DNA of 64,000 nt from Spirochaetota bacterium (GTDB lineage: Bacteria > Spirochaetota > UBA4802 > UB4802): contig DAOLVF010000002.1 of the NCBI GenBank assembly GCA_035420565.1, positions 5,896-69,895 of the forward strand, read 5' to 3'. The notes under the pieces were generated by a model, which saw only the letters and a list, made by a program, of their open reading frames with translations, did no database searches and had not been told where the DNA came from. Positions 933 to 51,597 of the stretch are shown one piece after another (the stretch's first letter is position 1; each line of letters begins with the position of its first letter). Both the position numbers and the translations under genes were made by a program.

Positions 933-1371
933 TATATGCTTCTATGATATCATTCTATGATACTATCATAACTATTCTTTAAGTGTTTATCAAATAATTT
1001 ACTTCATTTAGATAGTATTTTATATTTTTGTGCCACTACATAGTAAAACGCATTGTATGGCTTGATGATATTCTCCATGGAATATATGTAAGTGTTTACC
1101 ATCATCTGTGGCTGGATTATGTATTAACGGTGCTTCTATAGCCAGTAACTTTCTGTCATGCTCCATGACAATCAACAGAATCCATCATATCACGTTACGC
1201 AAGTTGCTGCTGGATTTACGTTTGCTGTAACCAGAGTGCATAAAAATGAATTAGTGCACATGCAATGGTATATATAAAAAGTAACTATCGCCCAAAATCT
1301 TTTTTGATTTACCTGAAATTAGTATTATGTTATGTTGTACATAGCTATCATTATCATGAGTTTTATACACT

Positions 1372-3381
1372 ATGCCACCATTTAAAGTTATTTCATCATA
1401 TACACCTTCAGGCGACCAGGCTAACGCCATAGAACAACTGGCAGATGGGATTAACAAAGGTTTGAAGTTCCAGACGCTTCTTGGTGTCACCGGCTCGGGT
1501 AAAACCTATACCATGGCAAAGGTCATTGAGAAGATTCAAAAGCCAACCCTGGTACTGACACATAACAAAACACTGGCTGCACAACTGTACCGCGAGTTTA
1601 AAGAATTTTTCCCTGAGAATGCCGTGGAATACTTTGTATCATACTATGACTACTACCAGCCTGAGGCGTACGTAGTTTCCCAGGACTTGTATATTGAAAA
1701 AGATGCCAGCATCAACGATGAGATTGATCGCCTGCGTTTAAAAGCAACCTCATCACTGGTGGAGCGCCAGGATGTGATTATCGTGTCATCGGTTTCGTGT
1801 ATTTATGGTATTGGTAATCCCGAAAGCTTTGAAAAAAATCATATACGGCTTGCCACTGGTCATGAGGTTGACAGGCAACAGCTTTTAATGAAACTTGTTT
1901 CCATACACTATGACCGTAATGACATTGCATTTACCCGTGGAACATTCAGGGTCAGAGGCGATACCGTGGAGGTTTTCCCTGCTAATCTACAATATGCATT
2001 GCGCATTGTCTTTTTTGGCGACGAAATTGAGGCACTGTATAAAATAAATCCGTTAACCGGCAACCGGATAGAATCTATTACGCAAGCGCATATCTACCCT
2101 GCAAAGCATTATGTTTCCAGCAAGGAGGAGATGGAAGAGACAATCCGGATGATACAGATTGAGCTGGAGCATCGCATCAACGAATTTACCAGCAGTGGCA
2201 GATTGGTTGAGGCACAGCGGCTGGAAACCCGCACGCTCTATGACATAGAGATGTTGCGCACCGTGGGATATTGCAACGGCATTGAAAATTATTCACGCAT
2301 CATTGATCGCAGACAGCCCGGTCAGCCTCCGCACTGTTTGTTGCACTACTTTAAAGGCAACTACATGATGTTTGTTGACGAGTCACATGTCACCATACCG
2401 CAGGTACGGGGGATGTATGAGGGCGATAGATCCCGTAAAAGTAATCTGGTTGAATATGGATTCAGGCTTCCTTCAGCACTGGATAACCGCCCCTTACAGT
2501 TCCATGAATTTGAGACCATGATTGACAGGGTTGTGTTTGTTTCCGCAACCCCTGCAGAATATGAACTGCAAATATCAGCGCAGGTTGTTGAGCAGGTTAT
2601 ACGCCCCACCGGTTTGATAGATCCCGAAATAGAGGTGCGCCCTGCAACCGGTCAGGTTGACGACCTGATTGGCGAGATTAAAAAAAGGGTTGCGGTAAAT
2701 GAACGTATACTGGTAACCACATTGACAAAAAAGATGGCAGAAGACCTGACACAGTATCTTACCGAGGTAGGATTACGGGTTCGCTATCTGCACTCGGAGA
2801 TAGAAACCATTGAACGCGTTGAAATTATCCGCGATTTGCGGAAGGGCATATTTGATTGTCTTATTGGTATTAACCTTTTGCGCGAAGGTCTTGATATCCC
2901 CGAGGTTTCACTTGTTGCAATCCTAGATGCCGATAAGGAGGGATTTTTACGCTCAACACGCTCGCTTATACAAACATCAGGCAGAGCAGCACGCAATAGT
3001 AACGGGAAAGTCATCATGTATGCCGATACCATTACCCGATCAATGCAGGAAGCAATAGACGAAACCAGAAGGCGTCGAAAAATCCAGATGGAATTTAATA
3101 CCCTCCACAACATTACTCCAAAAAGCATTTCCAAAGAGATTGTTGACATTATTGAGCGTGAATATCATTCTGACGATGTTTTTGCCGATCTTGTATCAGA
3201 ATATGCAAATGCATATCGCACCAACAATGTTGAGCAACTGAAAATGGTACATGAGAAAATTAAACAGGACATGCTTGAAGCGGCAAACAATTTTGAATTT
3301 GAAAAAGCTGCTGTTTTGCGAGACCAGATGTTTGATATAGAAAAGAAGATCGATATAGTGAGTAAAGCATCCGGGCGATAG
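1372..3381 (+). CDS. uvrB: excinuclease ABC subunit B (UvrB)
   Basis: Walker [16 protein letters not shown], helicase motifs, and a C-terminal UvrB/UvrC interaction helix ([12 protein letters not shown]). 669 aa. Confidence 0.95.
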
Positions 3382-3404
3382 ATACTATATAAGGGTATGA
3401 TACT

Positions 3405-11298: not shown

Positions 11299-11430
11299 AT
11301 ACCGTGTCATTCTTAATGAGCAAAGCAACTGAAGAATCTTGTTGTCCATATTGTCATTCTGAGGGGCAAAACCACAAAGAATATATTCTTTCATAAATGA
11401 CAAGATTCTTCGCTAACGCTTAGTATGACA
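11299..11430. repeat. MITE-like dispersed inverted-repeat element, copy A (short form)
   Basis: Contains two GTCATTCT(G/T)A...AAGAATCT units and ends ...ATGACA. Shares 5' and 3' modules with the copies at 22.9, 36.3 and 49.0 kb. Confidence 0.6.
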
Positions 11431-11988
11431 TACCCTTACAACGACTGCATGCATTGCTTCAACTTAGCTCAGCACAGGCACTTTTGCTTTAGAATGGCTA
11501 TAGGCTTCACCATAAGAATGCCAATAATGCTTCATTTCCATCATATTTAGGAAGATGCCCTGTAGCCATAAGGAAATCCACTGTTAAAAATATTTTAAAT
11601 AAAATGTACCAAAAAGGAATAAAACAATACAATATATGGTTACATCAGCTTATGAAATTAATTGATAAACATACTATCATGAATTAATTTTTAGTCAATT
11701 AATATTTTATTAAAATAAAAAAAAGTTGTAAAGGTAAAAAAATACTGTACATTTATTTACTTCACTAATATTAATATATTAAAAATTTTTGGTTTTTACT
11801 TGCATTAATAAAATGATTTTTTTTATTAATATTAATGTGTAACATTATTTAAACAAGGGAACCTCTAATAATTATATTCTGAATGTTTCCTTGTGAACAC
11901 AAGCATTGACAGCATGTTTTTTATTTTTTAATAACGAAAAACTTGATTTTTAAGGGCGTTCATAAATATAAAAACAAGAGGTCCGGGG

Positions 11989-17863: not shown

Positions 17864-17882
17864 ACAGTAACTATCGCCCACA

Positions 17883-19208
17883 TTAAAATTGTGGTTTATA
17901 AATTTCTTCAGGAAATTTTTTTAATATCGTTGCAGGTAGCGCATTGCTTTTGGCAATCTGAGCATATACCATGCCACTATGTTTGATGGTACGTTTCTGG
18001 GTTTTAAAATCAACATGCACCAATCCAAAGCGCGGTTCGTACCCATGCTCCCATTCAAAGTTATCAATGATCGACCAGTAGAAATACCCTCGGATGTCAA
18101 CACCTTCGGTGATTGCTTTATGAAGCATCTTGAGGTGATCAATAAGCACACGCTGTCGCCAGCTATCATCATTGGTGCCTATGCCATTTTCGGTAATATA
18201 CATGGGAATATGCGAGAAAGCATTATGCATTAGCTTTATAGCCAGATAAAATCCTTCGGGGTACGGTTCCCATCCAAGGCTGACACATAAGCCTTTTTTG
18301 CCACATACGGGGTTGTCAGTAGCAGGTACGGCCAGATCCTTTAATCGCAATGATAGCCTGATGAAGTTATAAAAATTAACGCCTATAAAATCATTGGTAT
18401 TGATTAGCTCCCTGTGTGATGAAAAAATTTGCAAGGGCAATTTTCCCTTTTTTAAGGAGCGGATAATAGCTCCATTAAAACAATAATCAGCAAACGCTGT
18501 AAATAGCTTATCCATGATACTGTTAGGATTGTACGGTTTTGTGATCTGAACATTGTGCACTATCCCAACCTTTGCATCAGGGTCAACAGATTTAATGGTA
18601 TGGTAAGCAATGGCATGCATCAGCATTGTTGTACCCAGCGCTTTAATGGCTTTGAGCATATTTTTTTGTCCAGGAGCAGATGTACCGGTAATATAGCCAA
18701 GCATGACAATACTTGGCTCGTTAATGGTATTGTAGAATTTTACCTTCCCTTTCAATGTTTTAGCAACAACATCGCAAAACTGTTTAAAATGCTCAAGGTG
18801 TTCTTTATCTCTGTTTAATAAGCCGCCTTCGTTGCACCACCAGATAGGAAGTGTAAAATGAAACAATGTCACAAAAGGCGTTATTTTACGCTTCAGCAAC
18901 TCGTTTATCATCGTCACATAATGGTCAAGTGCCTTTTTATCAAGCGTCCCGGGCTGGGGGAAAATCCGCGACCATTCTATTGACATGCGATATGCATTGC
19001 AGTTGAGCTTTTTTAAAAGATCAAAATCCTGTTTGAAGCGATTCCAGTGATCACAGGCAACAAGCGCGCTGTCATTATTTTTGATTGTACCTTCTTTTTC
19101 AAAAAGCCACCAGTTGTTGTTTGTAGTGCCACCTTCTATCTGATGAGCAGCGGTTGCGGTGCCCCACAAAAATCCCTTTGGAAATACAATATCTTCTTTT
19201 TGCGCCAT
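17883..19208 (-). CDS. GH1 beta-glucosidase
   Basis: FLWGTATAAHQIEGG N-terminal signature and nucleophile motif YITENGIG. Confidence 0.9.
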   Translation of the reverse strand: MAQKEDIVFPKGFLWGTATAAHQIEGGTTNNNWWLFEKEGTIKNNDSALVACDHWNRFKQDFDLLKKLNCNAYRMSIEWSRIFPQPGTLDKKALDHYVTMINELLKRKITPFVTLFHFTLPIWWCNEGGLLNRDKEHLEHFKQFCDVVAKTLKGKVKFYNTINEPSIVMLGYITGTSAPGQKNMLKAIKALGTTMLMHAIAYHTIKSVDPDAKVGIVHNVQITKPYNPNSIMDKLFTAFADYCFNGAIIRSLKKGKLPLQIFSSHRELINTNDFIGVNFYNFIRLSLRLKDLAVPATDNPVCGKKGLCVSLGWEPYPEGFYLAIKLMHNAFSHIPMYITENGIGTNDDSWRQRVLIDHLKMLHKAITEGVDIRGYFYWSIIDNFEWEHGYEPRFGLVHVDFKTQKRTIKHSGMVYAQIAKSNALPATILKKFPEEIYKPQF

Positions 19209-19520
19209 AACACCCTCGCTTTATTATTGTACTACACTATAAAAACATCTTTTTTACATTATTGAGTTGCTATAAAAAAATCAATAAAAAAATTATTATA
19301 CAGCAACCTATCATTGTGGTTACACATACTCTATGAACAACAGCAATGTAGATTACCATATATGGAATTATGGAACAAATGAGTATGATTGGCGATAGTT
19401 ACCGGTAAAAAAGTGATTGTAAAAAACCTATGAAAAGTGATTGAATAAATTCATTACCATACTTATATGCTGTGACAATAGCATTTTGAGCGCAAACAAA
19501 GAATCATGCCGTTGTGGGGA

Positions 19521-19600
19521 TATGTCATTCTGAGCGTCAGCAAAGAATCTCGTCTTTTGTGAAAGAGTATATTTTCTGGGACTTCGTCCCTCAGAATGAC
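19521..19600. repeat. MITE-like element copy B (80-bp minimal hairpin form)
   Basis: TATGTCATTCTGAGCG...AAAGAATCT...CCCTCAGAATGAC with 11-bp terminal inverted repeats. Confidence 0.55.
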
Positions 19601-19662
19601 AAAATGTGTTGCGTTTACCTGGAATTATAACGGTAAAAAATCATAGTGTTAAGGAAAATTAT

Positions 19663-20973
19663 ATGCCGACAACAATAAAAAATTTGGGACCTTGCACCGT
19701 TGTTTCTCCATTAGCAGTAAAATATCGCCAGCGTGAAGCTGCTTTTATTAATGATGCCATTAGAGTTCGTTTTAATGCATTCATAGGTAAAAAACCTCCC
19801 TCTGGTGGTGAAACAATTGAAAGCTTTGAAGCTGCAGGACCTCGTGAGAAGATTTTTTTTAATCCTGAAACAACACGAGTCGCTATTACCAGTTGCGGAG
19901 GATTAAGTCCGGGGATTAATGATGTTATCCGTTCACTGGTGATGGAATCGTATTATGGATATGGAATAAATGACATCATTGGCATACCCTATGGTTATAA
20001 TGGATTAAATCCTGAATATAATTATACCCCCATCCCCTTAAATCCTGACAATGTAAAATCAATCCATATGCAGGGCGGAAGCATTCTGGGTTCATCGCGT
20101 GGTGGCACCAGGGATATGGATAAACTTGTTGATACACTGCAAAAACTAAACGTCAGCATCCTCTATACAATAGGTGGCGATGGTACACTGCGGGGCTCAC
20201 ACGACATTGCCATGATTGCATTACAAAGAGGGTTGCCCCTGGCAGCAGTTGGTATCCCAAAAACTATCGACAATGACATAAGCTTTATTCAGCGTTCATT
20301 TGGATTTGAGACAGCTTTTTCTATTGCTGTAGAGGCAATCTATGCAGCGCATACAGAAGCAATAGGAGCACCCAACGGGATAGGACTTGTTAAACTTATG
20401 GGCAGGCACTCAGGTTTTATTGCGGCAAATGCAGCGCTGGCAAGCAATGATGTCAATTTTGTATTATTGCCCGAGGTTCCCTTTGAACTGTATGGAGCAA
20501 ATGGATTATGCGCCCATCTTGAAAATAGGTTGCAAAGAAGAGGACATGCTGTCATATGTGTCGCTGAAGGCGCAGGACAGGAAATACTGCAAAAAGATTC
20601 TGATAAACAATATGATGCTTCAGGCAATGTAAAATTGGCTGACATTGGTGCCTATCTAAAAGAAAAGATACAGGAATATTTTAAACAAAAAAAGATTGAA
20701 ATTAATTTAAAATACATTGATCCAAGCTATATGATACGCAGTGCCCCCGCAGTTCCCAATGATTCTATCTATTGTACATTATTAGGGCAGAATGCCGTTC
20801 ATGCCGGTATGGCCGGGAAAACAGATTTAGTCATTGGCCAATGGAGTAATATATACACTCATGTCCCGGTTGAGGTTGCAATTTCAAAACGAAAGCGCAT
20901 AGATCCCCATTCGCGCTTCTATAGCAGTGTACTTGACGCAACAGGACAACCTTTTGCGATGATAAATGAATAA
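19663..20973 (+). CDS. pfp: pyrophosphate-dependent 6-phosphofructokinase (PFK family, long B-type)
   Basis: ITSCGGLSPGINDVIRSLV ... TIGGDGTLRGS ... GIPKTIDNDI. Start at the Met preceded by AAGGAAAA. The PPi-versus-ATP assignment rests on the long-form architecture and is an inference. Confidence 0.8.
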   Translation: MPTTIKNLGPCTVVSPLAVKYRQREAAFINDAIRVRFNAFIGKKPPSGGETIESFEAAGPREKIFFNPETTRVAITSCGGLSPGINDVIRSLVMESYYGYGINDIIGIPYGYNGLNPEYNYTPIPLNPDNVKSIHMQGGSILGSSRGGTRDMDKLVDTLQKLNVSILYTIGGDGTLRGSHDIAMIALQRGLPLAAVGIPKTIDNDISFIQRSFGFETAFSIAVEAIYAAHTEAIGAPNGIGLVKLMGRHSGFIAANAALASNDVNFVLLPEVPFELYGANGLCAHLENRLQRRGHAVICVAEGAGQEILQKDSDKQYDASGNVKLADIGAYLKEKIQEYFKQKKIEINLKYIDPSYMIRSAPAVPNDSIYCTLLGQNAVHAGMAGKTDLVIGQWSNIYTHVPVEVAISKRKRIDPHSRFYSSVLDATGQPFAMINE

Positions 20974-21523: not shown

Positions 21524-22687
21524 TTACTGTATAGGCGCTGTAATTACTTTGTAATTATTACAGTACTTTTCATATATTGTCATTATACAATTATAATTAA
21601 TGGATAAAAATTCGTTAGCGGTAAATCCAACGGGATTTTCCTTCCTGTAGCTCTTGATATGAAATGAAGCGAGCACCCGTTGAGCATTGATCATATACTG
21701 TCCATCAATCTTTTCAATATACCCTTTCTTGATGCAAAATTTTAAAAACCGTTTTAATTTTTTGTGGCGATAGTTACTATCCAAAAGGTATTCATCAATA
21801 CCGGGCAGTTTCCCTTCTTTGACCAGCACAATAATATCATTGATGACAGTATCTAACTGTGATGCCAATTCTTCTTTTTTAAGAACTATCGCTTTATCAA
21901 TATTTTCAACCGCCATTGCCATGCGCTGGAGATATGTTGCAGCAATCTGACTGAAGGTTATGGTATGTAAACTTTTTAAAATTTCAGAAACTCTATCTAA
22001 AAATTTTTCTTTATCCCCAAGCATAAAAAAGGGCTCCCCAACATTTATAAAAATATCCTTTTTACCGGCTATGCAACGGTCAACCTTAACATTAATTGGC
22101 AGTATATATAATTTTTGCCTGAAGTGGCGATAGGTACTATCAACAAGCTGGAATATCCCACTGCGTAAATTTTTTAAACCTCCAAAACTCCACGTTGTCC
22201 CTTCCGGAAATATAAGCGTAGAAAAACCACTATGTATAGAATGTTTAAACTTTACCATCTGAGAGTGTATCTCATGTTTCACCTGATTTTTATTGTCAAA
22301 ATCTTCTATGAAGGGGCGTGGAATATCAATCAGTTTCATCTTTTTGAAAAAAGCTTTTGGCAACCCTGTTTTATCTAAAAAATAAAAAAAATAATAGAGC
22401 AGTTTATTCTTTTCTCCAAAATTTGATGCCAGATAGTTCCCACTTAAAAAATCTTTTTTTGCCATTACCACAAAGTGTGGACGTGGTTTCAATGAATAAT
22501 ATACCTTTGAAAGGGATGGCACCTCAAAATAGCTATCATGCGTAGGGGCAAATATTACAAGGTGGGGGATTTTTTTTAGATATTCTTTCCCTTTTAAATG
22601 AGCTTTATGCCGCATAATCAATGAAGCAACTTTAAAACAGAAAATAAAAAATTCATAGACTATGCCATTTGATGGCTGCATATACAT
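21524..22687 (-). CDS. putative lysophospholipid/glycerol-phosphate acyltransferase-like protein (PlsC-like)
   Basis: PTHDSYFE (H-x4-D-like) and FPEGTTW motifs resemble acyltransferase blocks I and III. The match is weak. Confidence 0.45.
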   Translation of the reverse strand: MYMQPSNGIVYEFFIFCFKVASLIMRHKAHLKGKEYLKKIPHLVIFAPTHDSYFEVPSLSKVYYSLKPRPHFVVMAKKDFLSGNYLASNFGEKNKLLYYFFYFLDKTGLPKAFFKKMKLIDIPRPFIEDFDNKNQVKHEIHSQMVKFKHSIHSGFSTLIFPEGTTWSFGGLKNLRSGIFQLVDSTYRHFRQKLYILPINVKVDRCIAGKKDIFINVGEPFFMLGDKEKFLDRVSEILKSLHTITFSQIAATYLQRMAMAVENIDKAIVLKKEELASQLDTVINDIIVLVKEGKLPGIDEYLLDSNYRHKKLKRFLKFCIKKGYIEKIDGQYMINAQRVLASFHIKSYRKENPVGFTANEFLSINYNCIMTIYEKYCNNYKVITAPIQ

Positions 22688-22817: not shown

Positions 22818-22970
22818 ATACCGTGTCATTCTGAGAGACCCAGTCCCCAAGAATCTATCCTTTCATAAAAAGCAGAGATTCTTCACTTCGTTCAGAATGA
22901 CATCCCCATGCCACAGTGAGATTTTTTTCTTCGACTTCGCTCCACACAGACGGCTTCAGCTCAGAATGAT
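22818..22970. repeat. MITE-like element copy C
   Basis: ATACCGTGTCATTCTGAGAG...CCAAGAATCT...AGATTCTTCACTTCGTTCAGAATGAC...GCTCAGAATGAT. Shares its 5' module with copy A and its 3' module with the copies at 36.3 and 49.0 kb. Confidence 0.6.
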
Positions 22971-29808: not shown

Positions 29809-31694
29809 ATAGAGAGTGTTGTAAAGGGGATTGTCGGTTTACCGTCAATCCCCAGAGTTTTATATATCATATTTTGATCATCATCATCCTCAAAGCTTAC
29901 AATATCAATACATTCAGCGTACTGTTCTTTTATCCATTGGCCATATATCCCTGCACAACCTTTTGCCACAACAGCCGGCACAGGATAGGCAAAGTGATAC
30001 TGTGTAATTTCATCATAATTGCTGCGCAACAGTTTAATGATAGGGTTGATACAGCGGTAATGGTCTTTAGCTCTGAGATATGTTTTCAATGATTCAAATA
30101 CCTGGAAGATACGCACAGGCAGCTTATCATAGGTATCCTGAAAATACATCATCCTGCAATAAAAGGTATTATGTGTTGCTGTAAATACTTTGCTGGCAAT
30201 ATCCTCATCGTTAAGAACTGCATCATACATAAGGACAATTGAGCAGAGCATTGTGTCCCATGGATACTGCTGGATTATTAATTCTACGGCATGTTCAATT
30301 TGCGGGTAACTATCGCATAGCAAATAAAAGGTAATATGACTTGTTTGCATATAATCAAATACTTCCATAGGGATGGAACGGCGCTTTGTAAGGTCAATGC
30401 AGGCTCCCGATACAAGCTCCCCCTGCTGAAAAATGAACGATGGCAGGTATGGGGTATCAAAGGTAAACCCTGTGGTGTCTTCAAAATAACATGTGATGGC
30501 TGTTATATCATGCTGCGTAAAATTGAACCCTTCAATGAGGTAATAAGGTGGCTTTTGCAAAAATGTTGCACCTGCAGCAATTGCCTCATCATACAGAGCG
30601 GTACCCGGCAGCACCATCAGTGGGTAAAGTTCCAGTTCATTCCCAAGCCCTGCATCAAGCAGAGTGTCCATTGTTGTATAAAATGATTCAGGGGTATCAT
30701 AGGGAAGCCCGGGGATTATGCCAACCTGTAAATTGATGCCTGCATCTTTTAAATAGAATATCCCCTGTAGCTCTTTTTCCGGGTTTGTTTTTCTGCCAAT
30801 CTTTTGTAAACATTTTTTATTTAATGTTTGAATGCCTACCTCAGCGCTACGGAAATTGGCTTTCTTTAAGGTCATAGCAATGTTGCTGGTAATGGTATCG
30901 GCCCTGAGCTCAGTATGCAGTGAGACAGAGCATCTGCTGGATATCAGTGTTTGCAGATAATCATTGAAGTGTGATGATTGATTAAATGTAGGGGCTAAAA
31001 GATACAGTTCCTGTATTTCATCACTCATACTTTTTTTGATAATATCGGCAAGCTTGTGCGGCGGTAAGGCTCTGACCCTGCTGGTATTTTTAGAATAGAG
31101 ACAATAGGTGCATTTGAAAGGACACCCCCGAATAATTTCAACACTCAGGCTTTTATCATGCATTGGTGTGAGGTATCCAGATGTATAGGGTTCCACTATC
31201 TGTGACAGCGGAATAAAGGTGTCAGAGCCCTGAATAAAAACGGCGTTACCATTGACCATATGAATAAATTGTTTGCAGGTATTGTTATAGTAATGATTGA
31301 AAAAATATTCGCCTTCGCCAATGACAAATATATCTATGCACGGTTGGTGCTGTTTCAGGATATATGAGTTTACCTGTATTTCTGGACCACCAAAGAGTAT
31401 TATGATATGTGATGCCATAGCCTTAATCGTTTTAGCAATTGCCAGTGAACGCTCTACATTCCACAAATAGCAAGTGAATGCAACATGCGTTGGCTCATTG
31501 TGCAAAATATGATTCACAATCATCGAATCAGAGCCATAGTTCTGGATGCTATACGGCAGTTGTAATCCTTTCATGGTACCACCAGAGGTTAGCTCACAGA
31601 AGGCGTGCAGGGTTGCAGCAGCATTGGGGATATTACCGGTAATGTACTGTAATCCATGATCAATCAGCGGAAGTTGTACAAATTGAATCTTCAT
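29805..31694 (-). CDS. B12-binding domain radical SAM protein with a long C-terminal extension
   Basis: rSAM cluster motif GCPFKCTYCLY (C-x3-C-x2-C) preceded by a Rossmann-like B12-binding N-domain. About 250 aa of unassigned C-terminal sequence. Confidence 0.85.
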   Translation of the reverse strand: MKIQFVQLPLIDHGLQYITGNIPNAAATLHAFCELTSGGTMKGLQLPYSIQNYGSDSMIVNHILHNEPTHVAFTCYLWNVERSLAIAKTIKAMASHIIILFGGPEIQVNSYILKQHQPCIDIFVIGEGEYFFNHYYNNTCKQFIHMVNGNAVFIQGSDTFIPLSQIVEPYTSGYLTPMHDKSLSVEIIRGCPFKCTYCLYSKNTSRVRALPPHKLADIIKKSMSDEIQELYLLAPTFNQSSHFNDYLQTLISSRCSVSLHTELRADTITSNIAMTLKKANFRSAEVGIQTLNKKCLQKIGRKTNPEKELQGIFYLKDAGINLQVGIIPGLPYDTPESFYTTMDTLLDAGLGNELELYPLMVLPGTALYDEAIAAGATFLQKPPYYLIEGFNFTQHDITAITCYFEDTTGFTFDTPYLPSFIFQQGELVSGACIDLTKRRSIPMEVFDYMQTSHITFYLLCDSYPQIEHAVELIIQQYPWDTMLCSIVLMYDAVLNDEDIASKVFTATHNTFYCRMMYFQDTYDKLPVRIFQVFESLKTYLRAKDHYRCINPIIKLLRSNYDEITQYHFAYPVPAVVAKGCAGIYGQWIKEQYAECIDIVSFEDDDDQNMIYKTLGIDGKPTIPFTTLSI

Positions 31695-32321
31695 TGAAAT
31701 GGATCAATAAGGTGTAATGAAATCTTCAAGTAACTATCGCCTGCAATTCTTTATTACATAATTTATAAAACTATAAATGCATCCAATGCATCCGTTGAAC
31801 ATATACAACTATTATTATACGTTATTTGAAATCAATAATTTTATCAACAAATTAACCTGAATTTATCACTATTGGGTTTACCATGCTTTTTGATACAATG
31901 AAAGCCATTGCAACAATTTCAACACAATGTTTTTAATAGTTTCAATAAATAGAAGGATTAAATATAATTATTTGTTATATATTATAACAACATATTATAT
32001 AAATAATATATTTTTTTATTTTAATATAAAAAAATATTTGACATAAAATGAATAGTAATTTCTTATCGTAAAAGTTTACTATTAGATAATAAAAAACTGC
32101 ATCAATACATTATAGTTTATTTTGGCTACACTAACTGGTAATTGTAAGAGTAATTACTCTATCAGTAAAACGATTATGATGTAGCGGAATACCTTTGAAG
32201 GATATATTATTATCTTTTAAAAAAGAAAAACATTGGGTTGGGTGTAGCCAAAATTTTTGTTTTATTTTTTTTTGCACTACTCACCAGAAAAAACTTAATA
32301 CCTTATCCCAACGGGATGGAA

Positions 32322-32945
32322 TCATATAGTATCAGAGGTAAATGGTCCTCCATCCAATACAAAAAAACCATACTCGGCAAAAAGGTTGGGCATAATAGGT
32401 ATTGTTACTGAATGAGAACGAATGGTTGAAAAATGCATTTCTTTTTTTATAGGATAACCAAACGCATTGCAAAAATCTCTGAAGTCCTTAATTGTTAAAA
32501 GATGTATATTCGGTGTTTCATACCATTCATAGGGTAATAATTTATTTTTCGGCATTCGGCCATAGATTGAAATATACAACCTCAGGCTATAATGGGCAAA
32601 GTTAGGAAAACTGAAGATAGCATTTAATGATATACGAAGCGATTCGCGTATAACAATCTCTGGTTTTTTTGTACTTTGCAACGTCTGATTAACAATCACA
32701 TAATCAAATGAATTGTCTTTATAATCGTTTAACCCTTCATCGATGTCGCCCTGATAACAGTACAATCCTTTTTCAACACATTGGCTTACACCTTCCGGTG
32801 AGATTTCAACACCAAATCCTTTAACTTTTCTTGTAGTTTGTAGCAACTTCAACAACTGACCATCACCACATCCTAAATCAAGCACCCGTGCACCATATGG
32901 AATCTCTTTTAGAATCAAATCATATGCAACCCTGTATTCCTTCAT
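32322..32945 (-). CDS. metW: methionine biosynthesis protein MetW (SAM-MTase-fold partner of MetX)
   Basis: VLDLGCGDGQLLKLL motif, about 200 aa, immediately downstream of metX with an overlapping stop/start. Confidence 0.75.
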   Translation of the reverse strand: MKEYRVAYDLILKEIPYGARVLDLGCGDGQLLKLLQTTRKVKGFGVEISPEGVSQCVEKGLYCYQGDIDEGLNDYKDNSFDYVIVNQTLQSTKKPEIVIRESLRISLNAIFSFPNFAHYSLRLYISIYGRMPKNKLLPYEWYETPNIHLLTIKDFRDFCNAFGYPIKKEMHFSTIRSHSVTIPIMPNLFAEYGFFVLDGGPFTSDTI

Positions 32946-34105
32946 TACCGGTGAACCTTTTCAAACTCCCGTTTTAAAAAATTAGCTATATTATGCTCCA
33001 ATTGTTCATGTGGCAGTAGAAATGTATCATGCCCTTTATCACTCTGTATTTCGGTAAAAATAACATTTTTGCTGTTCATACGCAACGCTCTAACAATCTC
33101 GCGCGATTGTGAAGTTGGGTATAACCAGTCAGAAGAAAAACTTATAACAAGGTAATTAGAATTTACATTAACAAAAGCATTAGCCAGATCACCATTAAAA
33201 TCATTCTTCAAATCAAAATAATCAATAGCTTTTGTGATATACAGATATGAGTTAGCATCAAATCTCTGAACAAAATCATTCCCTTTATGGTGAAGGTATG
33301 ACTCAACTTCAAACTCAAGATCCAGGTGAAATTTAAAAATATCTGAATGTTGCAATCTTCTGCCAAATTTTTCGTGCATCAGCTTCTCGCTCAGGTAGGT
33401 TATATGTCCAATCATACGCGCAAGTGATAGTCCATTCTTAGGATTTTCATTGTTATAATATTTACCATAATTCCAGTTGGGATCAAGCATAATTGCCTGT
33501 CTGCCAACTTCATTGAATGCTATTCCCTGTGCCGAAAGAGACGCTGCCGTTGCAATTGCTACTACAGACTGCACCATCTCAGGATATGATATTGACCATT
33601 GCAATGCCTGCATCCCACCCATTGAACCTCCAACAACTGATAAAAGCTTTTGTATCCCCAAAAATTTAATTAAATGATATTGCGCATTTACCATATCCTG
33701 AATAGTGACAATGGGAAAATCCAAACCATATTCTTTTCCCGTTTCAGGATTAATGGATGATGGACCGGTTGAACCGCTGCATCCGCCAATAACATTGGAA
33801 CAAATAACAAAATAGTGTGATGTATCAAAAGTTTTACCGGGACCAATATAAATATCCCACCAACCCGGATATATATCTTTTTTTGAATGGTATCCTGCCG
33901 CATGTGCTGAACCTGAAAGGGCATGAAGTATTAATATGGCATTACTTTTGTCACTGTTAAGAGTACCGTATGTTTCATAGGCTAATGTTATTGGCCCAAG
34001 TTTTTTCCCTGAAACCAATAACAATTCATCAGGTGGCTCAGCAAAAGTGAAATAATTAGTAGTAACGATACCAGCCGAATTTCCAGGTATTATCTCCGCT
34101 TTCAT
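32945..34105 (-). CDS. metX: homoserine O-acetyltransferase
   Basis: Alpha/beta hydrolase with [12 protein letters not shown] nucleophile elbow. Full-length MetX similarity. Confidence 0.9.
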
Positions 34106-34130: not shown

Positions 34131-34290
34131 AAAATAAAAAAACGCTTACCGGAAGATCGTGTAAGCGGATACTTATTGCTATCTCATCTCCCGGAATATC
34201 TTCCGCTGGAATTGGCACCGGCTTTTCGTTCCGGTTGCCGTGGTTTCACAGGGCCAGTCCCTCTACCACTCTTGATAAGATAGTACGATT
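34131..34290 (-). promoter_or_regulatory. SAM-I (S-box) riboswitch with intrinsic terminator in the metX-metW leader
   Basis: Minus-strand sequence CUUAUCAAGAGUGGUAGAGGGACUGGCCCUGUGAAACCACGGCAACC...GGUGCCAAUUCCAGC...GAGAUGAGAUAG matches S-box P1-P4 conserved elements. It is followed by CCGCUUAC-loop-GUAAGCG plus a U7 terminator, then the RBS AAGGGGGAG and the metX ATG. Confidence 0.85.
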
Positions 34291-34762: not shown

Positions 34763-34953
34763 CTTTTACTTTTGTAGTATGAATTATTAAATTAATACTT
34801 AATAAACAGTAAATAATAGTACTATTTACATTTTCAAGTCAACAAAAAAATATTTAAAAAACTTTTTAGCTTGCCCTGAATAATCTTTGAACAGCCTTTA
34901 CAATGATGCATGTTTATTTGTGCGATAGTTATTGTGGAATGTACCTGTTAGTC

Positions 34954-35973: not shown

Positions 35974-36250
35974 AACAACCCTCCTCCAAAAAAATTACAA
36001 TATCGTGGTCTATGCCATCCCTCAGTGTGTTTGTATCGGAGTGATGCATCTTCACATTGCATTTATCTATTCATAGTCATTGCACAACCTATTACATTTT
36101 GGCAAAAATATCTTTTCTCTATCAACATGATTGCCATGATAGTTTTTATCCTCGAAATAACATTACCCTATCGTTTATCATATTTGTATAACAACAGCTC
36201 AATGTTTCTTCCCCACCCAAAAGAGCATATGGCTCCTCCGAAAATAGAAG

Positions 36251-36479
36251 TATGTGCCAATGTCATCCCAGACTTTGTCCGGAATCTCTTTTTCCACATT
36301 CGTCATTCCGGGCTTGCCACGGAATTTAAATATGTAATCTTAGAGCCTGAAATGATACTGAAACCGGTTCAGAACATTATTCAGGATGACACACCCCACA
36401 TTGTTATTCTGAGGAACGCAGCCCCGAAGAATCTATTCGTTTATAAAATGACGAGATTCTTCACTTCGTTCAGAATGAC
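36251..36479. repeat. MITE-like element copy D, full-length 229 bp
   Basis: TATGTGCCAATGTCATCC...TTCAGAATGAC. The same length and termini as copy E at 48885..49113. Composed of four GTCATYC...GAATCT hairpin modules. Confidence 0.7.
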
Positions 36480-36865
36480 TATCGGTTTCGCCTCAGCATG
36501 ACGATACTATGCAATTTTCATCCCCTACGGGTAGTCCATCGACAACTATCTCATAGAAGCACTCTATTGAACACTATATGTTGTATTCCACCTTGTGTGT
36601 ATATTGTTATACCATATTCCTTTGCTATACTTTTTTATTATATTAATTCATTCTGTTATTTTCTTATTGACCATAAACAAACTGTACAATGTGTCAATCA
36701 ATTATTTTATTTCATCGCATAGTTATAACAAATAGTTCTTTAAAAATATTGCAATGTTGGTAAAAAAATTATTGAAGAAAATACAATAATAGCGTAAGTG
36801 CAATGAAGTATTATTCAATTCCAGCAATAAATGAAAAAAGTTTACAATACCATAGGATAATCCAC

Positions 36866-43563: not shown

Positions 43564-44925
43564 ATGCAAGAAACCATTTGTGCTCCAGCAACACCGCCTG
43601 TACATGCACCAATAGCAATTATACGAATCAGCGGCCCTGAATCCTTACGGGTCGCTTCTTCTATTTTTAAACAACACAATAAACAAACTATATCCACACC
43701 CCGTTATGCATACTATGGGACAATCTTTGATGGGGAATATGAAATTGATGATGCGATAGTTATTTATTACGCACAACCGCATAGCTATACAGGCGAGGAC
43801 ATGGTTGAAATATTCTGTCATGGCAATCCTATTATTGTTAATAAAATAATGAATCGCCTTCTGGCATTGCATGTACGTATAGCCCAGCCAGGAGAATTTA
43901 CTAAACGAGCTTTTTTTAACGGAAAAATGGACCTCACCGAAGCTGAAGCTATCAATCATATTATAACAGCCCGGAGTGAATGGGAAATAGCTACGGCAAT
44001 ACAGCAAAAACATGGATCGTTACGCACTACTATCAATAAACTGAAACAAACAATAGTAGAGTTAAAAGCTGATATTGAATGTGCCATTGACTTTATTGAT
44101 CAGGATATCGAAATAATCTCTTATCAGGATGCTCAGCAAAGGATAGAAGATATTATTCATACCATACAGGAAATTATCAACAGATGTAAGGTTGGGAATA
44201 ATTTATCTCATGGGATAGATATTGCTATTGTTGGCAAACCCAATGCAGGGAAATCAAGCTTTTTAAACTGTGTGGTCAATCATGAGCGTGCAATTGTTTC
44301 AGATGAACCGGGTACAACGCGTGATGTTATAAAAGAATCAGTTACCATTCATGGCATTCAATGTAATCTATACGACACAGCAGGGATTCATGATGTAGCA
44401 TCAGGGATTGAACTGCTGGGAGTTCAAAAAAGCTACAGGATTATTGACGAGGTTTCACTCTTATTTTTTATCCTTGATGCTACAAGTGGTTTTACCGTTG
44501 AAGATTCCCATATTCTTGAGCGCATCAGTTCCAAACCATATATCCCCGTTATTAATAAATGCGATATTGCCTCACCCGAACAAATCAATGCTATCAATAC
44601 ACAATTGCCCAAAAAAGGGATTGTGTTTGCAGCCACAACAGGCTATGGTATGGATGTGCTGGAGCATACGGTGTCTGATTTTATTCAAAGCTCGTATGTC
44701 AACTACACCAATTCATTTATTGCTGATATTCGTATTATACAGCTTTTAGAGCAATCCAGCGCAGGTGCCCATGAGGTGCGGGAGCAGCTACTCAAGCAAA
44801 GCCCTCACGAGATTATAGCATCAGCATTGCAGGATGTCATTGACACTATTGGTGCAATAACCGGTGAAATTACTGTTGATGATGTTCTCAATTCAATCTT
44901 TTCACGCTTTTGTATAGGCAAATGA
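43564..44925 (+). CDS. mnmE: tRNA uridine-5-carboxymethylaminomethyl modification GTPase MnmE
   Basis: G1 motif GKPNAGKSSFLN, G3 motif DTAG, and C-terminal CIGK. A possible earlier start lies at 43546, overlapping jag. Confidence 0.9.
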   Translation: MQETICAPATPPVHAPIAIIRISGPESLRVASSIFKQHNKQTISTPRYAYYGTIFDGEYEIDDAIVIYYAQPHSYTGEDMVEIFCHGNPIIVNKIMNRLLALHVRIAQPGEFTKRAFFNGKMDLTEAEAINHIITARSEWEIATAIQQKHGSLRTTINKLKQTIVELKADIECAIDFIDQDIEIISYQDAQQRIEDIIHTIQEIINRCKVGNNLSHGIDIAIVGKPNAGKSSFLNCVVNHERAIVSDEPGTTRDVIKESVTIHGIQCNLYDTAGIHDVASGIELLGVQKSYRIIDEVSLLFFILDATSGFTVEDSHILERISSKPYIPVINKCDIASPEQINAINTQLPKKGIVFAATTGYGMDVLEHTVSDFIQSSYVNYTNSFIADIRIIQLLEQSSAGAHEVREQLLKQSPHEIIASALQDVIDTIGAITGEITVDDVLNSIFSRFCIGK

Positions 44926-44929
44926 TGGC

Positions 44930-47608
44930 ATGGTAATGGTAAAATATTGTATAACTATAGTGTTAAGTTTATATATAGTGGCGATAGTTACTGTTGATGC
45001 ATCTTCAGATATCATAGGTCATGATACCGTTACTATGTATTGTAGTGGAGATTCACAAGCACTCGCTGAACAGTATGTAAACGGTGCGCAAAACCTTACA
45101 ATACCAAACCTGCTCATTTTAGCGGATAGTGAACATATACAGCAGATAATTGGAATTGAAAAAACAATAGAACTGCTGGAATTGCTTTCTACCAATGCAC
45201 AATCACCATACGAAAAAATGTTTATCAACGATATTGCAGATATATCAAAAGAACGTTTCTATAAAAACGATGTAAAAGGAAATCAACGCTGGTATATCTA
45301 TGATAATAGTAAGGAACCAATGCCCAAAAGCGTGATATCTTTCCAAACACAACTGGATACCCTAATACTTCCTGATAAAAACAAAATAGCAGTAATGCAA
45401 TCATGCGCGGGGTATATACCTGTAAAGCAATACACCCAGATTTTACACGCAACAGGACTATGCAGCGCATCGTTTGAATTACATAAACCGGTTTCTATGT
45501 ATGTTTTTTCCAATATGGAGTATGCCATTTTTATCAATGGAACAAAAGTATGTGTTAATACGACAACAACAGTAAAAAAAGATGCTCGAATCATTCATAT
45601 TGAACCACAGGAGGGATTCAGCATAGCAATATATTACAAACCAGACAATGATATGTACTTAAAAATACTGTTTCGTGATGAAACCAATGCAACGATGCAG
45701 TTACCTGCTACCGACACCATGTATTATAATCCTGTTAACTGTTATGAGATATTCTATGAATATCAAAATCAACTTCTGTCAAACTATATGAGCAACCATT
45801 CGCCTGATAATGCACTGCAACTTGCTCTTTTTTCAGAATCAATTCACAGCACAGAGGCTTTCAAATATTATCATCAAGCATTGCGTTCACACAACGATTT
45901 TATCTCATACCGATTGTGTTCATTGCTACTGAGGTATAGCCGTGCATTCCCGGATAGCATTTTGTTGTTGAGAACTAACGTGCAAAAAAATATACAACCT
46001 CAAACAGTGCTGGGTGGCTATTTTTACGATATGCTCTATTCACCAGAGTCCATGAATATTGCAGAAATACAGTGGCTACCCATACTTATACAAACTTTAT
46101 ACATCCAAAAAGAAGAACTCATTAATAAAAAAGCAGATTTAGATTTTTTGTTCAAACGCTTTCCGCAAAGCCATGAACTTGCCTTTACCATAGCATCTAT
46201 CTATTCATCCTATGATAATCACAAGGCGACAACAATATTGGAAACATATAAAAACCTCAATGATAAGGAGCTTACATTGCTGATTCACTGCTATACTGAA
46301 AATAAACAATTTGAAAAAATAGTAACTATCCTTTCTGGTGTCAGGGAACATACATTTTTTTATGATTATATCAATGCCCTCATTGCACTTGGTAAGTATG
46401 GTGAAGCAAAGAGCGCTTTGTTTAAAACAATTGCACAGGGTTTTGACACTGAAGCTTATGCGCTATTAGCCACAATAGCTCAATTAGAAGGCTATGACGC
46501 CAGCATGTATAGTCAAAAGCATCATGCGATTGTCAATAGTCTTGTTGTGCATCCCGATTATATGAAAGCCACTTTTGATGATTACGTGCAAAATTATTTT
46601 TTTAAACAGCTTGCTTATGAAATTATCAATCATACCACAAACAAATTAATGTATTCATGTTATGCAGTGCGGATGGTTCATGATGCACTATATTGTACCA
46701 TATACGACGCATACCATTGTACTGATATATCCGTATTCAATACCTACCAATTTTCTCCCGACACTGAGAATATTAGTTATACTCTCTATGCATACAATAA
46801 CGAAGGGAAAATGAAATCATACACCTTTTATCCCGGCAACTATACAATACAACAGAAGATACAGGAATATTTACACGATAGTCACTGTGAATTTTTTGTA
46901 ATAGCGATATCATTTCGATTGCGAAAAAACATCGATATAATGCATATACAACAAAATTACAAGCAATCACCATTTACGCTGGATATTATCGTTTTATCTC
47001 CTGAATCAGATGTAACCATATCGGGAACAATGCGCCTCAATGAAATAACAACCAATGTTAGGTATATTCATCACTATACCTGCAATAGTAATGAATTGTT
47101 ATCGCCAAACAATAGGGAATTTGTTATCATGGCTATCCAACCACAAGCATTAATTACATGGATAGAAGAACAGAATGCCCTGTTTAAACGCGGCATTGAA
47201 CTCTTAGACATAAAAGAAATTCAGGGCAACTCAATAGATGAGGCAATACACGAGGTGCTCCAGGAACTACAAACCTATACTATTGCCGATAATGTTTATG
47301 GTATCACTTCTATAGTACAATGGACTCTTCTGCATAAAGGAACACAGCTTGATGCTATGCTCTACGCACGATACCTATTAGCTAAAAAAGGTATTATATC
47401 CTGCATTGCGCTGGGGGATTCACACAAAAAGATTGTTGCTAAAAAAAATAATCTTTATTTTGATACAGTGTTTCTGTATATACCATTAACCCCTGATAAG
47501 GGGATATGGTTAACTTATAAAAACTCATACCCCTCATCAGAAGTACTCAATATATCAAATATTTTACTTATTGTGGGTGGTGAGATTATCAGCAAACAGA
47601 GCAACTAA
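44930..47608 (+). CDS. large hypothetical protein (892 aa) with an N-terminal signal anchor
   Basis: Uninterrupted ORF with coding-like composition. No confident domain call; possibly TPR-like helical repeats in the mid-region. Confidence 0.5.
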   Translation: MVMVKYCITIVLSLYIVAIVTVDASSDIIGHDTVTMYCSGDSQALAEQYVNGAQNLTIPNLLILADSEHIQQIIGIEKTIELLELLSTNAQSPYEKMFINDIADISKERFYKNDVKGNQRWYIYDNSKEPMPKSVISFQTQLDTLILPDKNKIAVMQSCAGYIPVKQYTQILHATGLCSASFELHKPVSMYVFSNMEYAIFINGTKVCVNTTTTVKKDARIIHIEPQEGFSIAIYYKPDNDMYLKILFRDETNATMQLPATDTMYYNPVNCYEIFYEYQNQLLSNYMSNHSPDNALQLALFSESIHSTEAFKYYHQALRSHNDFISYRLCSLLLRYSRAFPDSILLLRTNVQKNIQPQTVLGGYFYDMLYSPESMNIAEIQWLPILIQTLYIQKEELINKKADLDFLFKRFPQSHELAFTIASIYSSYDNHKATTILETYKNLNDKELTLLIHCYTENKQFEKIVTILSGVREHTFFYDYINALIALGKYGEAKSALFKTIAQGFDTEAYALLATIAQLEGYDASMYSQKHHAIVNSLVVHPDYMKATFDDYVQNYFFKQLAYEIINHTTNKLMYSCYAVRMVHDALYCTIYDAYHCTDISVFNTYQFSPDTENISYTLYAYNNEGKMKSYTFYPGNYTIQQKIQEYLHDSHCEFFVIAISFRLRKNIDIMHIQQNYKQSPFTLDIIVLSPESDVTISGTMRLNEITTNVRYIHHYTCNSNELLSPNNREFVIMAIQPQALITWIEEQNALFKRGIELLDIKEIQGNSIDEAIHEVLQELQTYTIADNVYGITSIVQWTLLHKGTQLDAMLYARYLLAKKGIISCIALGDSHKKIVAKKNNLYFDTVFLYIPLTPDKGIWLTYKNSYPSSEVLNISNILLIVGGEIISKQSN

Positions 47609-48860: not shown

Positions 48861-48884
48861 CAGAACCCCCTCCGAATATAGTTT

Positions 48885-49113
48885 TATGTGCCAATATCAT
48901 TCTGTACTTGAACAAGAATCTCTTTTGCCGCTTTTGTCAATCCTGACCTTTTCAGGAATCCAAATTTGTAACCTTATATCCTTAAATGATCCTGAAACCA
49001 GTTAAGAATATTATTCAGGATAACACACTGCACACTATCATTCTGAGAGACGCGCTCCCAGAGAATCTATTCTTCCATAAAACGAAAAGATTCTTCACTT
49101 TGTTCAGAATGAC
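48885..49113. repeat. MITE-like element copy E, full-length 229 bp, between the two nrdD pieces
   Basis: TATGTGCCAATATCATTC...TTCAGAATGAC. Collinear with copy D at 36251..36479. Confidence 0.7.
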
Positions 49114-49231
49114 AATAGTACTCCATTTTTATCACTTACCATAACTGCAATGCAGCCATCAACAATCCCTTGAAAATAAATATACAGTCAAGCAATACTC
49201 ATAAATACAATCTATTCAACAACTTATACGT

Positions 49232-51319: not shown

Positions 51320-51597
51320 ATAAAGACTCCCAAAAAAGAAATAAACCAACACGATCACTGTATAGCACACAATGCGATGGTTATTATTAGCTTGATAAGA
51401 TATGTTTTTGTATATTACGTTAGAATAATAAAATAAAAAAGTCAATCATAATTATGTCACGTAACAAAAAAAAATGAAACACTAAACATATATTTATATA
51501 AATCACTATAGTATAAATATTACGCAAAAATTTAAATTGTACTTTGAGATGGTATTACCGATAGTTACACTATATTAACTACAAAGAGGTATGAAGT

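Follow-up and report, generated by a model that had tools for sequence, protein, structure and literature searches.

A clade-wide 12-base signature word in uncultured Spirochaetota that resembles DNA uptake sequences

Sequence-specific DNA uptake underlies ideas on why bacteria import DNA and limit its exchange to kin and, to our knowledge, it is known experimentally from two proteobacterial families only, the Neisseriaceae and the Pasteurellaceae. We know of no uptake sequences of the DNA uptake sequence (DUS) or uptake signal sequence (USS) kind from Spirochaetota. A 2013 study by Frye is said to describe family dialects of the neisserial DUS. The USS of Haemophilus influenzae combines a 9-bp core with one-sided T-tracts that are stronger at intergenic sites; of 2000 sites, 1302 lie in genes and 692 between them, and strand has no effect (Mell 2012, PMC3458573). 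Neisserial DUS are strongly conserved in more divergent surroundings and sometimes form inverted pairs (Treangen 2008, PMC2397512). Here we describe a 12-base word, GGCGATAGTTAC, that recurs on both strands of a 64-kb stretch of DNA from a Spirochaetota bacterium (contig DAOLVF010000002.1 of assembly GCA_035420565.1; this whole stretch is hereafter the window). The word is a real clade-wide DNA signature of uncultured, low-GC Spirochaetota, and its behaviour is compared below with that of DUS, USS and other iterated sequences.

The window contains six exact and three one-mismatch sites of GGCGATAGTTAC. Dinucleotide shuffles of the window gave an expectation of 0.16 matches at ≤1 mismatch, and nine were reached in 0 of 100 shuffles. 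The word tops all 10–13-mers of the window by repeat count, followed by the termini of repeats resembling miniature inverted-repeat transposable elements (MITEs). The excess was graded, with 14 occurrences of the sub-word GCGATAGTT against 0.45 expected from base composition and 68 sites at ≤3 mismatches to the word against 31 expected. A sequence-only reading of the window had already called the 12-mer highly over-represented, non-palindromic and separate from the MITE-like repeats. This was borne out, the inner 7-bp AGTTACT being the sole palindromic part, and all six of the exact positions that it listed on the two strands were found again. Its near-matches stood in part: 22126 and 30306 are indeed one-mismatch copies, whereas 34921 and 51557 carry two mismatches and had been placed one to two bases off, and the one-mismatch copy at 3374–3385 (+) had been overlooked. 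The word is not embedded in a bigger conserved repeat. A repeat finder run on the window assigned it to no longer repeat family and kept it apart from the MITE-like elements, the flanks of the window copies showed no conservation past a few positions, and Rfam and tRNA scans of the window gave no match at any copy, the sole match being an S-adenosylmethionine (SAM) riboswitch elsewhere.

The over-representation extends well beyond the window. We scanned a metagenome collection with the 18-mer GGCGATAGTTACTGTTKA, an extension common to three known copies, which returned 80 loci (0.62 Mb), many of them contigs of the same digester, sludge and other environmental metagenomes. With the seed copies excluded, these loci held 31 exact and 64 one-mismatch copies of GGCGATAGTTAC, a density at ≤1 mismatch of ~1 per 6.6 kb, equal to that of the window. 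Counted on contig loci, exact copies occur at ~1 per 10–20 kb and copies at ≤1 mismatch at ~1 per 7 kb; 119 of 186 copies at ≤1 mismatch are exact 12-mers. Controls amounted to 2.4 Mb, made up of 120 viral loci (1.0 Mb) and loci from genomes of UvrB relatives (1.37 Mb), and contained 0 extra exact and five one-mismatch copies. The viral loci, which were chance 14-mer matches, accounted for no further exact and four one-mismatch copies. Since the 14-mer scan of viral contigs gave 120 single chance matches and none with several copies, there is no link to phage. When species-representative genomes were scanned with UvrB, all the relatives recovered came from other phyla and were ≤63% identical; the word was absent from their 1.37 Mb, which therefore served as a negative control. 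The frequency thus stays far above expectation outside the window, as befits a real motif.

The carriers of the word belong to Spirochaetota. Window genes are ordinary chromosomal housekeeping genes, including uvrB, nadC, the phosphofructokinase (PFK) gene, an RND efflux system, metX-metW, nrdD, PBP1 and others, together with an rpmH-rnpA-yidD-yidC-jag-mnmE cluster at 40.2–44.9 kb. Homologues of UvrB and PFK at 97–100% identity come from Spirochaetota metagenome-assembled genomes (MAGs). Ten proteins from ten motif-rich loci were all present in the protein collection, and every named member of their clusters was a Spirochaetota MAG protein (an organism name was present in 7 of the 10 clusters). 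The same holds for an 892-aa protein of the window (44930–47608, +), for which four homologues were found among 5.8 billion proteins, the named ones being Spirochaetota MAG proteins. A group of ten loci from marine, salt-marsh and other assemblies (L222, L237, L238, L243, L246, L264, L271, L280, L283 and L287) represents one orthologous single-copy locus; each holds the 18-mer once and no further copies, and the group probably reflects a chance match to a gene conserved in unrelated organisms. A literature string search with the word and its complement matched only primers and vector sequences.

An extended consensus was drawn from 76 copies that were neither seeds nor mutual orthologues. It reads TTTTnnG-GGCGATAGTTAC-TGTnAA over ~25 nt and is asymmetric, with GCGATAG as its least variable part. 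Position by position, the consensus is T-rich from -7 to -4, has G at -1, continues as [G/t/a]GCGATAGT[T/a][A/c]C and ends in T, G, T, n, A, A, with A conserved at +16/+17. The one-sided T-tract and the weak 3' extension were common to genic and intergenic copies and stronger in the intergenic ones. No homology between copies was found beyond ~25 nt. Most copies are solitary, and the few tight inverted doublets have spacers of 11 (L226, L235), 13 (L247) or 47 nt (L270). Those of L226 and L235, which are mutual orthologues, and of L247 fold as strong hairpins, lie between divergent gene starts and lack T-runs. An inverted partner was present in few copies only, at -23, -25 or -59.

Judged with a crude set of open reading frames (ORFs), by which ~14% of the sequence is intergenic, 63 of 158 unique copies (40%) were intergenic and ~60% genic. 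Among intergenic copies, 31 faced a gene start and 24 a gene end; on the upstream side, the neighbour was a start in 32 cases and an end in 26. As starts and ends are faced about equally, orientation follows neither a promoter-like nor a terminator-like rule. Some copies lie between convergent genes (17867) and several supply the stop TAG of the upstream gene (uvrB, 3374). The genic copies (56 sense, 39 antisense) were evenly distributed along genes and occupied all four stop-free frames, read as AIVT (37), VTIA (20), GDSY (19) and NYR (13). The antisense stop-containing frame was filled only by one-mismatch variants that remove the stop (GTTCC, GTAAC; read ELSP or LLSP), and the sense stop-containing frame had no internal copy, its TAG being usable only as a gene's stop codon. 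Codon choice was strongly affected. The peptide AIV was encoded as GCG-ATA-GTT in 33 of 86 cases against 1.3 expected from codon usage, VTIA as GTA-ACT-ATC-GCC in 9 of 21 against 0.04 and NYR as AAC-TAT-CGC in 14 of 25 against 1.2; motif codons are 12–200 times commoner than expected and rare codons are forced. The use of all stop-free frames, together with the overriding of codon choice, identifies the word as a DNA-level feature and not a peptide motif. A coding motif was rejected on the same grounds: the TAG serves as the stop of uvrB and of a few further ORFs, yet the copies share neither an ORF nor a peptide.

Strand relations between neighbouring copies were assessed after homologous loci had been collapsed to 36 groups (378 kb, 89 copies). 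Across these independent loci, 17 neighbouring pairs lay on the same strand and 33 on opposite strands (p = 0.03). This preference for the opposite strand excludes a polarity of the kind seen in Chi or the FtsK orienting polar sequences (KOPS).

Individual sites in the window illustrate this variety of settings, the nine copies at ≤1 mismatch following the strand order -,+,-,+,+,+,-,-,+. The exact copy at 1281–1292 (-) is intergenic and points away from uvrB, whose start lies 79 nt downstream, and the one-mismatch copy GGCGATAGATAC at 3374–3385 (+) provides, with its own TAG (3379–3381), the uvrB stop codon, 19 nt before the start of nadC. An exact copy at 17867–17878 (-) occupies most of the 19-nt gap between convergent genes for a 226-aa membrane protein and a GH1 glycosidase, and another at 19391–19402 (+) is intergenic, ~270 nt upstream of the probable PFK start. 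Two copies fall within the acyltransferase gene (21524–22687, -), namely the exact one at 21766–21777 (+), which is antisense and read N-Y-R, and the one-mismatch GGCGATAGGTAC at 22126–22137 (+). The B12-binding radical-SAM gene carries the one-mismatch copy TGCGATAGTTAC on its sense strand (30306–30317, -; read C-D-S-Y), and an exact intergenic copy in sense orientation (31730–31741, -) lies 35 nt upstream of the B12-radical-SAM start. The remaining exact copy, at 44980–44991 (+), forms codons 17–21 of the 892-aa orphan protein and is read A-I-V-T. Two-mismatch copies were found at 2422–2433 (+) within uvrB (GGCGATAGATCC, unchanged in L291 and L296, relatives at 73% nucleotide identity), at 34921–34932 (+) between genes and 43752–43763 (+) within mnmE/trmE (both TGCGATAGTTAT, the latter conserved in L081 and L083) and at 51557–51568 (+) between genes, 29 nt before the 51598 ORF (ACCGATAGTTAC). 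The proximity to start codons remarked upon in the sequence-only reading is therefore real for uvrB (on the opposite strand), the B12-radical-SAM gene and the 51598 ORF, but no such rule holds in the larger sample of clade copies.

Comparison with relatives showed that the word is conserved above its surroundings. In orthologues at 70–80% nucleotide identity, the 12-mer was 95% identical against 76% for the flanks (n = 12; non-seed, ungapped). Genic copies were kept in orthologues at 72–75% nucleotide identity. The acyltransferase copies 21766 and 22126 were retained as GGCGATAGTTCC and GGCGATAGGTGC, respectively, in orthologues of 74% nucleotide identity, and copy 44980 was exact at the same place in an 86% relative (L081) and read GGCGATAGCTCC in a 43% relative (L082). 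The comparison of orthologous spacers that had been suggested from the sequence was run, and intergenic copies were seen to come and go, by substitution only. Copies before htrA in L082, in L252 and in L281 were missing from the orthologous spacers, and copy 19391 reads GGCGATAGTTAT (...TTAT) in the same-species contig L288. The 88% relative L085 has a copy on the other strand (-), 42 nt upstream of PFK, against + and ~270 nt in the window. Alignments of L291 and L296 with the window placed motif-like sites opposite non-motif sequence without gaps (e.g., AGCTATAGTTAC vs TGCAATTGTTAC), and at one aligned site the exact word of L296 is matched by GGCGATAGTTTT in L291 and by AGCGATAGTTTT in the window. 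As presence and absence differ by substitutions without indels, sites arise and decay in place and not by insertion. The word was not found in UvrB relatives at 73–75% identity with a GC content of 50–58% (L292, L294, L295), nor in PFK relatives at 67–70% (L086, L088).

Variation between lineages was apparent in the word itself. Three lineages ~73% nucleotide-identical to the window retain the core GCGATAG in excess, with a copy every ~2.3 kb where controls have one every 10 kb. L082 (GCA_026414805.1) contains GCGATAGCTC five times and the TTAC version once in 22.7 kb. L291 (GCA_937920495.1) contains GCTATAGTTAC three times, a variant absent from the window, the 0.62 Mb of clade loci and the 1.37 Mb of controls, and L296, 84% identical to L291, reads the same sites otherwise and favours GATAGTTGY. 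Judged from one ~22-kb locus each, the 3' half of the word is shifted in these related lineages (L082, L291, L296), and we read the shifted words as dialect-like drift or partial decay.

With promoter or operator, Chi/KOPS, repetitive extragenic palindrome (REP), MITE or recombinase explanations and a coding artefact all rejected, a recognition word for a DNA-handling protein remains, and we infer that GGCGATAGTTAC is recognised, in a sequence-specific manner, by a DNA-handling protein of the clade. The word behaves like DUS and USS, and a DNA uptake signal is the best-fitting known model; we favour it tentatively, at something short of an even chance. Under such a model, a competence machinery would preferentially bind and import fragments carrying GGCGATAGTTAC, homologous recombination of the imported fragments would spread new mutational copies through the population (molecular drive), and copies would pile up wherever they are tolerated. 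The preferred word would co-evolve with its receptor, giving rise to lineage dialects. Of the options offered by the sequence-only reading, an uptake or recognition sequence is thus the one that gains from a clade-wide, DNA-level word independent of gene orientation and frame, whilst a density below that of canonical uptake sequences speaks against it. With more doubt, one may see here the first uptake-type self-recognition sequence outside the Proteobacteria, the clade transforming sequence-selectively by means of tags spaced ~7 kb apart, which in sister lineages would diverge into dialects (GCGATAGCTC, others) along with the receptor. The habitats of the clade are anaerobic digesters, activated sludge and perhaps hot-spring mats.

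Several points weigh against an uptake signal. The density is 5–10 times below that of canonical DUS and USS (~1 per kb). A prepilin-motif regular expression applied to ~0.8 Mb of clade DNA returned 0 type IV prepilin-like ORFs, a weak and uninformative negative. The evidence for dialects is thin, as it comes from single ~22-kb loci, and the L291 and L296 sites appear fuzzy and not sharply re-tuned; GCTATAGTTAC as an L291 dialect is weakened by the different reading of the same sites in L296. The alternation in orientation of neighbouring copies is a mild excess that none of the explanations considered, uptake included, predicts. We also know of no demonstration of natural transformation in Spirochaetota. 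In favour of uptake, on the other hand, proteins of the ComEC type are widespread among Spirochaetes (Pimentel and Zhang 2018, PMC6299819).

The main rival, which we regard as rather unlikely, is an array of binding sites for an abundant sequence-specific chromosomal protein, be it nucleoid-associated, chromosome-organising or self-DNA-marking. Selection for binding would keep several hundred copies per genome regardless of genes, and the word would drift with the specificity of the protein. Such an array would account for the same descriptive facts as uptake, including conservation above the flanks, independence of strand and genes and lineage-specific variants. A sharp asymmetric site of 12–25 nt is typical of a monomeric DNA binder, the density is below that of known uptake sequences, and the alternating orientation of neighbours could reflect looping or bridging. 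However, known chromosome-organising sites (parS, matS, the Noc-binding sites NBS and the SlmA-binding sites SBS) are palindromes present in tens and not hundreds of copies per genome, and abundant nucleoid-associated proteins bind degenerate sequences, unlike a word with so large an exact share. Selection at hundreds of sites that overrides codon usage is also harder to explain than drive, and no candidate protein was identified. A second non-uptake process, which we consider improbable, is modelled on the highly iterated palindrome HIP1 (GCGATCGC), a cyanobacterial 8-bp palindrome that is linked to methyltransferases and iterated within and outside genes. Here, repair, modification or nicking, such as biased correction of the very-short-patch type, would convert near-matches into a word without function of its own. 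Origin by point mutation, DNA-level accumulation in all stop-free frames and clade specificity with drifting variants would all fit, and the iteration of HIP1 in genic and intergenic DNA is comparable. Against this, GGCGATAGTTAC is non-palindromic and specifies 12 bases in a row in addition to its flanks, whereas known methyltransferase and Vsr-type specificities span 4–8 bp and are mostly palindromic; no enzyme of either type was found among the ORFs of the window that were scanned.

A transcription signal is less credible again and, in our view, very improbable. The word could be a long -10 element of an alternative sigma factor, as GGCGATAG resembles the sigma-28 -10 sequence GCCGATAA, or the operator of a global regulator, and several intergenic copies do lie 1–40 nt upstream of starts in sense orientation (nadC, B12-radical-SAM, htrA in L082). 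The T-rich upstream part, a conserved A at +16/+17 that would make a plausible start site, and the tight divergent doublets between divergent genes point the same way. Yet the genic majority lies on either strand, intergenic copies face ends almost as often as starts and in places sit between convergent genes, the neighbours are unrelated housekeeping genes and not flagellar ones, and forced codon usage in many genes is not expected of a promoter. No -35 (TTGACA) or TAAA partner was found at a fixed spacing. The transcription-factor half-site proposed in the sequence-only reading fails for the same reasons of genic location and balanced orientation. A sigma-54 promoter was rejected by inspection, its spacing not fitting, as was a dimeric operator, most copies being solitary and the longer palindrome GATAGnTACTATC present in only 3 of 9 window copies. 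Least probable, and largely refuted, is an origin as the remnant or end of a small mobile element (REP, the REP doublets known as REPINs, or a MITE inverted repeat) or as a recombinase core site, with pairs flanking invertible or mobile cassettes. This had some appeal, given the inverted pairs that flank uvrB (1281-/3374+) and the GH1 gene (17867-/19391+), the absence of GH1 upstream of PFK in L085, three tight inverted doublets that fold as REPIN-like hairpins and the excess of opposite orientation among neighbours. However, copies share no homology beyond ~25 nt and have no target-site duplications, the in-frame genic copies are kept within conserved genes of diverged orthologues, and orthologous sites differ by substitutions and not indels; on these grounds both the mobile-element terminus and the recombinase core site of the sequence-only reading are discarded. 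In addition, uvrB is a housekeeping gene that is syntenic across all relatives, and the scan, which covered about half of the window's ORFs, revealed no transposase, RAYT or recombinase. Insertion of a GH1 cassette was likewise rejected: the gene upstream of PFK in L085 and the 226-aa gene of the window are not homologues, which leaves no basis for inferring a clean GH1 insertion.

If GGCGATAGTTAC is indeed a DNA uptake signal, it would be a third independent case, in another phylum and known from uncultured organisms only, and would show that self-tags evolve repeatedly. A new pair of receptor and word would be open to study, and a simple sequence marker would be at hand with which to bin and track the clade and to detect, in metagenomes, recombination between its members. 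Should the copies instead be sites of a chromosomal protein, they would represent a new, unusually specific and abundant system of DNA-protein recognition. Either way, annotators should expect the word within genes and at gene ends, as in the uvrB stop codon.

Several further features of the window were recorded. A MITE-like family of ~80–115 nt, unrelated to the 12-mer, has termini TGTCATTCTGAG...CTCAGAATGACA and is entirely intergenic; elements with inverted termini are located at 11347–11459, 19494–19606, 22824–22902, 36404–36480 and 49038–49114. A 248-nt direct repeat (36235–36482 and 48869–49116, 76% identical) contains one such element. The SAM riboswitch (34181–34281, -; Rfam RF00162, 91.5 bits) is found upstream of the metX-like alpha/beta-hydrolase and MetW genes (32322–34105). 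In all fetched relatives (loci L291–L297), metX-metW directly precedes uvrB and shares its strand; the window has the two ~30 kb apart and on opposite strands (uvrB at 1372–3381). This displacement indicates that the window lineage is rearranged, the breakpoint being the 750-nt spacer with the 1281 copy. The GH1 glycosidase gene (17883–19208, -) sits between an inverted pair of word copies. The mechanical PFK ORF (19606–20973, +) begins with GTG at 19606; as its homologues are 436 aa long and span 96% of it, translation probably starts at ATG 19663. In the 88% relative L085, PFK is preceded by another gene, and gene content upstream of PFK thus varies among close relatives. The 892-aa protein has no Pfam domain, and its homologues, all from related Spirochaetota, are always encoded directly after mnmE. 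The rpmH-to-mnmE cluster, which is origin-proximal in many bacteria, has no adjacent dnaA in the window, and GC skew across the window showed no clear switch.

Set beside known iterated sequences, GGCGATAGTTAC shares with Chi, KOPS and the SpoIIIE recognition sequences (SRS) the property of being an oligomer over-represented within genes. Chi and KOPS are 5–8 nt long and strongly co-oriented with replication, whereas neighbouring copies here are mostly on opposite strands. With REP, REPIN and MITE sequences it has in common that short repeats are dispersed and occasionally form hairpins as inverted doublets, but those are extragenic, palindromic and spread by insertion, and the copies here are mostly single, genic and in frame, and born by substitution. 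HIP1 is likewise a clade-specific DNA-level word found in and between genes, with a function that is unknown or debated, and the letters GCGAT are common to both; the present word differs in having at least 12 bases, an asymmetric form (only the inner AGTTACT is palindromic) and directional flanks.

The two proteobacterial uptake sequences come closer. Like the DUS of the Neisseriaceae (ATGCCGTCTGAA, recognised by the minor pilin ComP), GGCGATAGTTAC is a 12-nt word on both strands, conserved amid divergent flanks, with occasional close inverted pairs and possibly dialect-like variation between lineages. DUS are, however, mostly intergenic and often form terminator pairs, whereas the doublets here lie between divergent genes and lack T-runs; the density here is lower, the prepilin-motif scan of ~0.8 Mb revealed no ComP-like pilin, and the evidence for dialects is thin. 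The USS of Haemophilus and other Pasteurellaceae (core AAGTGCGGT) is unrelated in sequence, belongs to Gammaproteobacteria and not Spirochaetota, and occurs at ~1 per kb against ~1 per 7 kb; uptake bias and competence belong to the USS, whilst the present word is known from sequence alone. In organisation, the two are alike. Each has a short invariant core and a weaker one-sided T-tract that is stronger at intergenic sites, and in both about two-thirds of sites are genic and one-third intergenic, several reading frames are tolerated and neither replication strand nor coding strand has an effect. Finally, the Pasteurellaceae USS has lineage types (Hin-type vs Apl-type), to which the shifted words of the Spirochaetota lineages described here may correspond.

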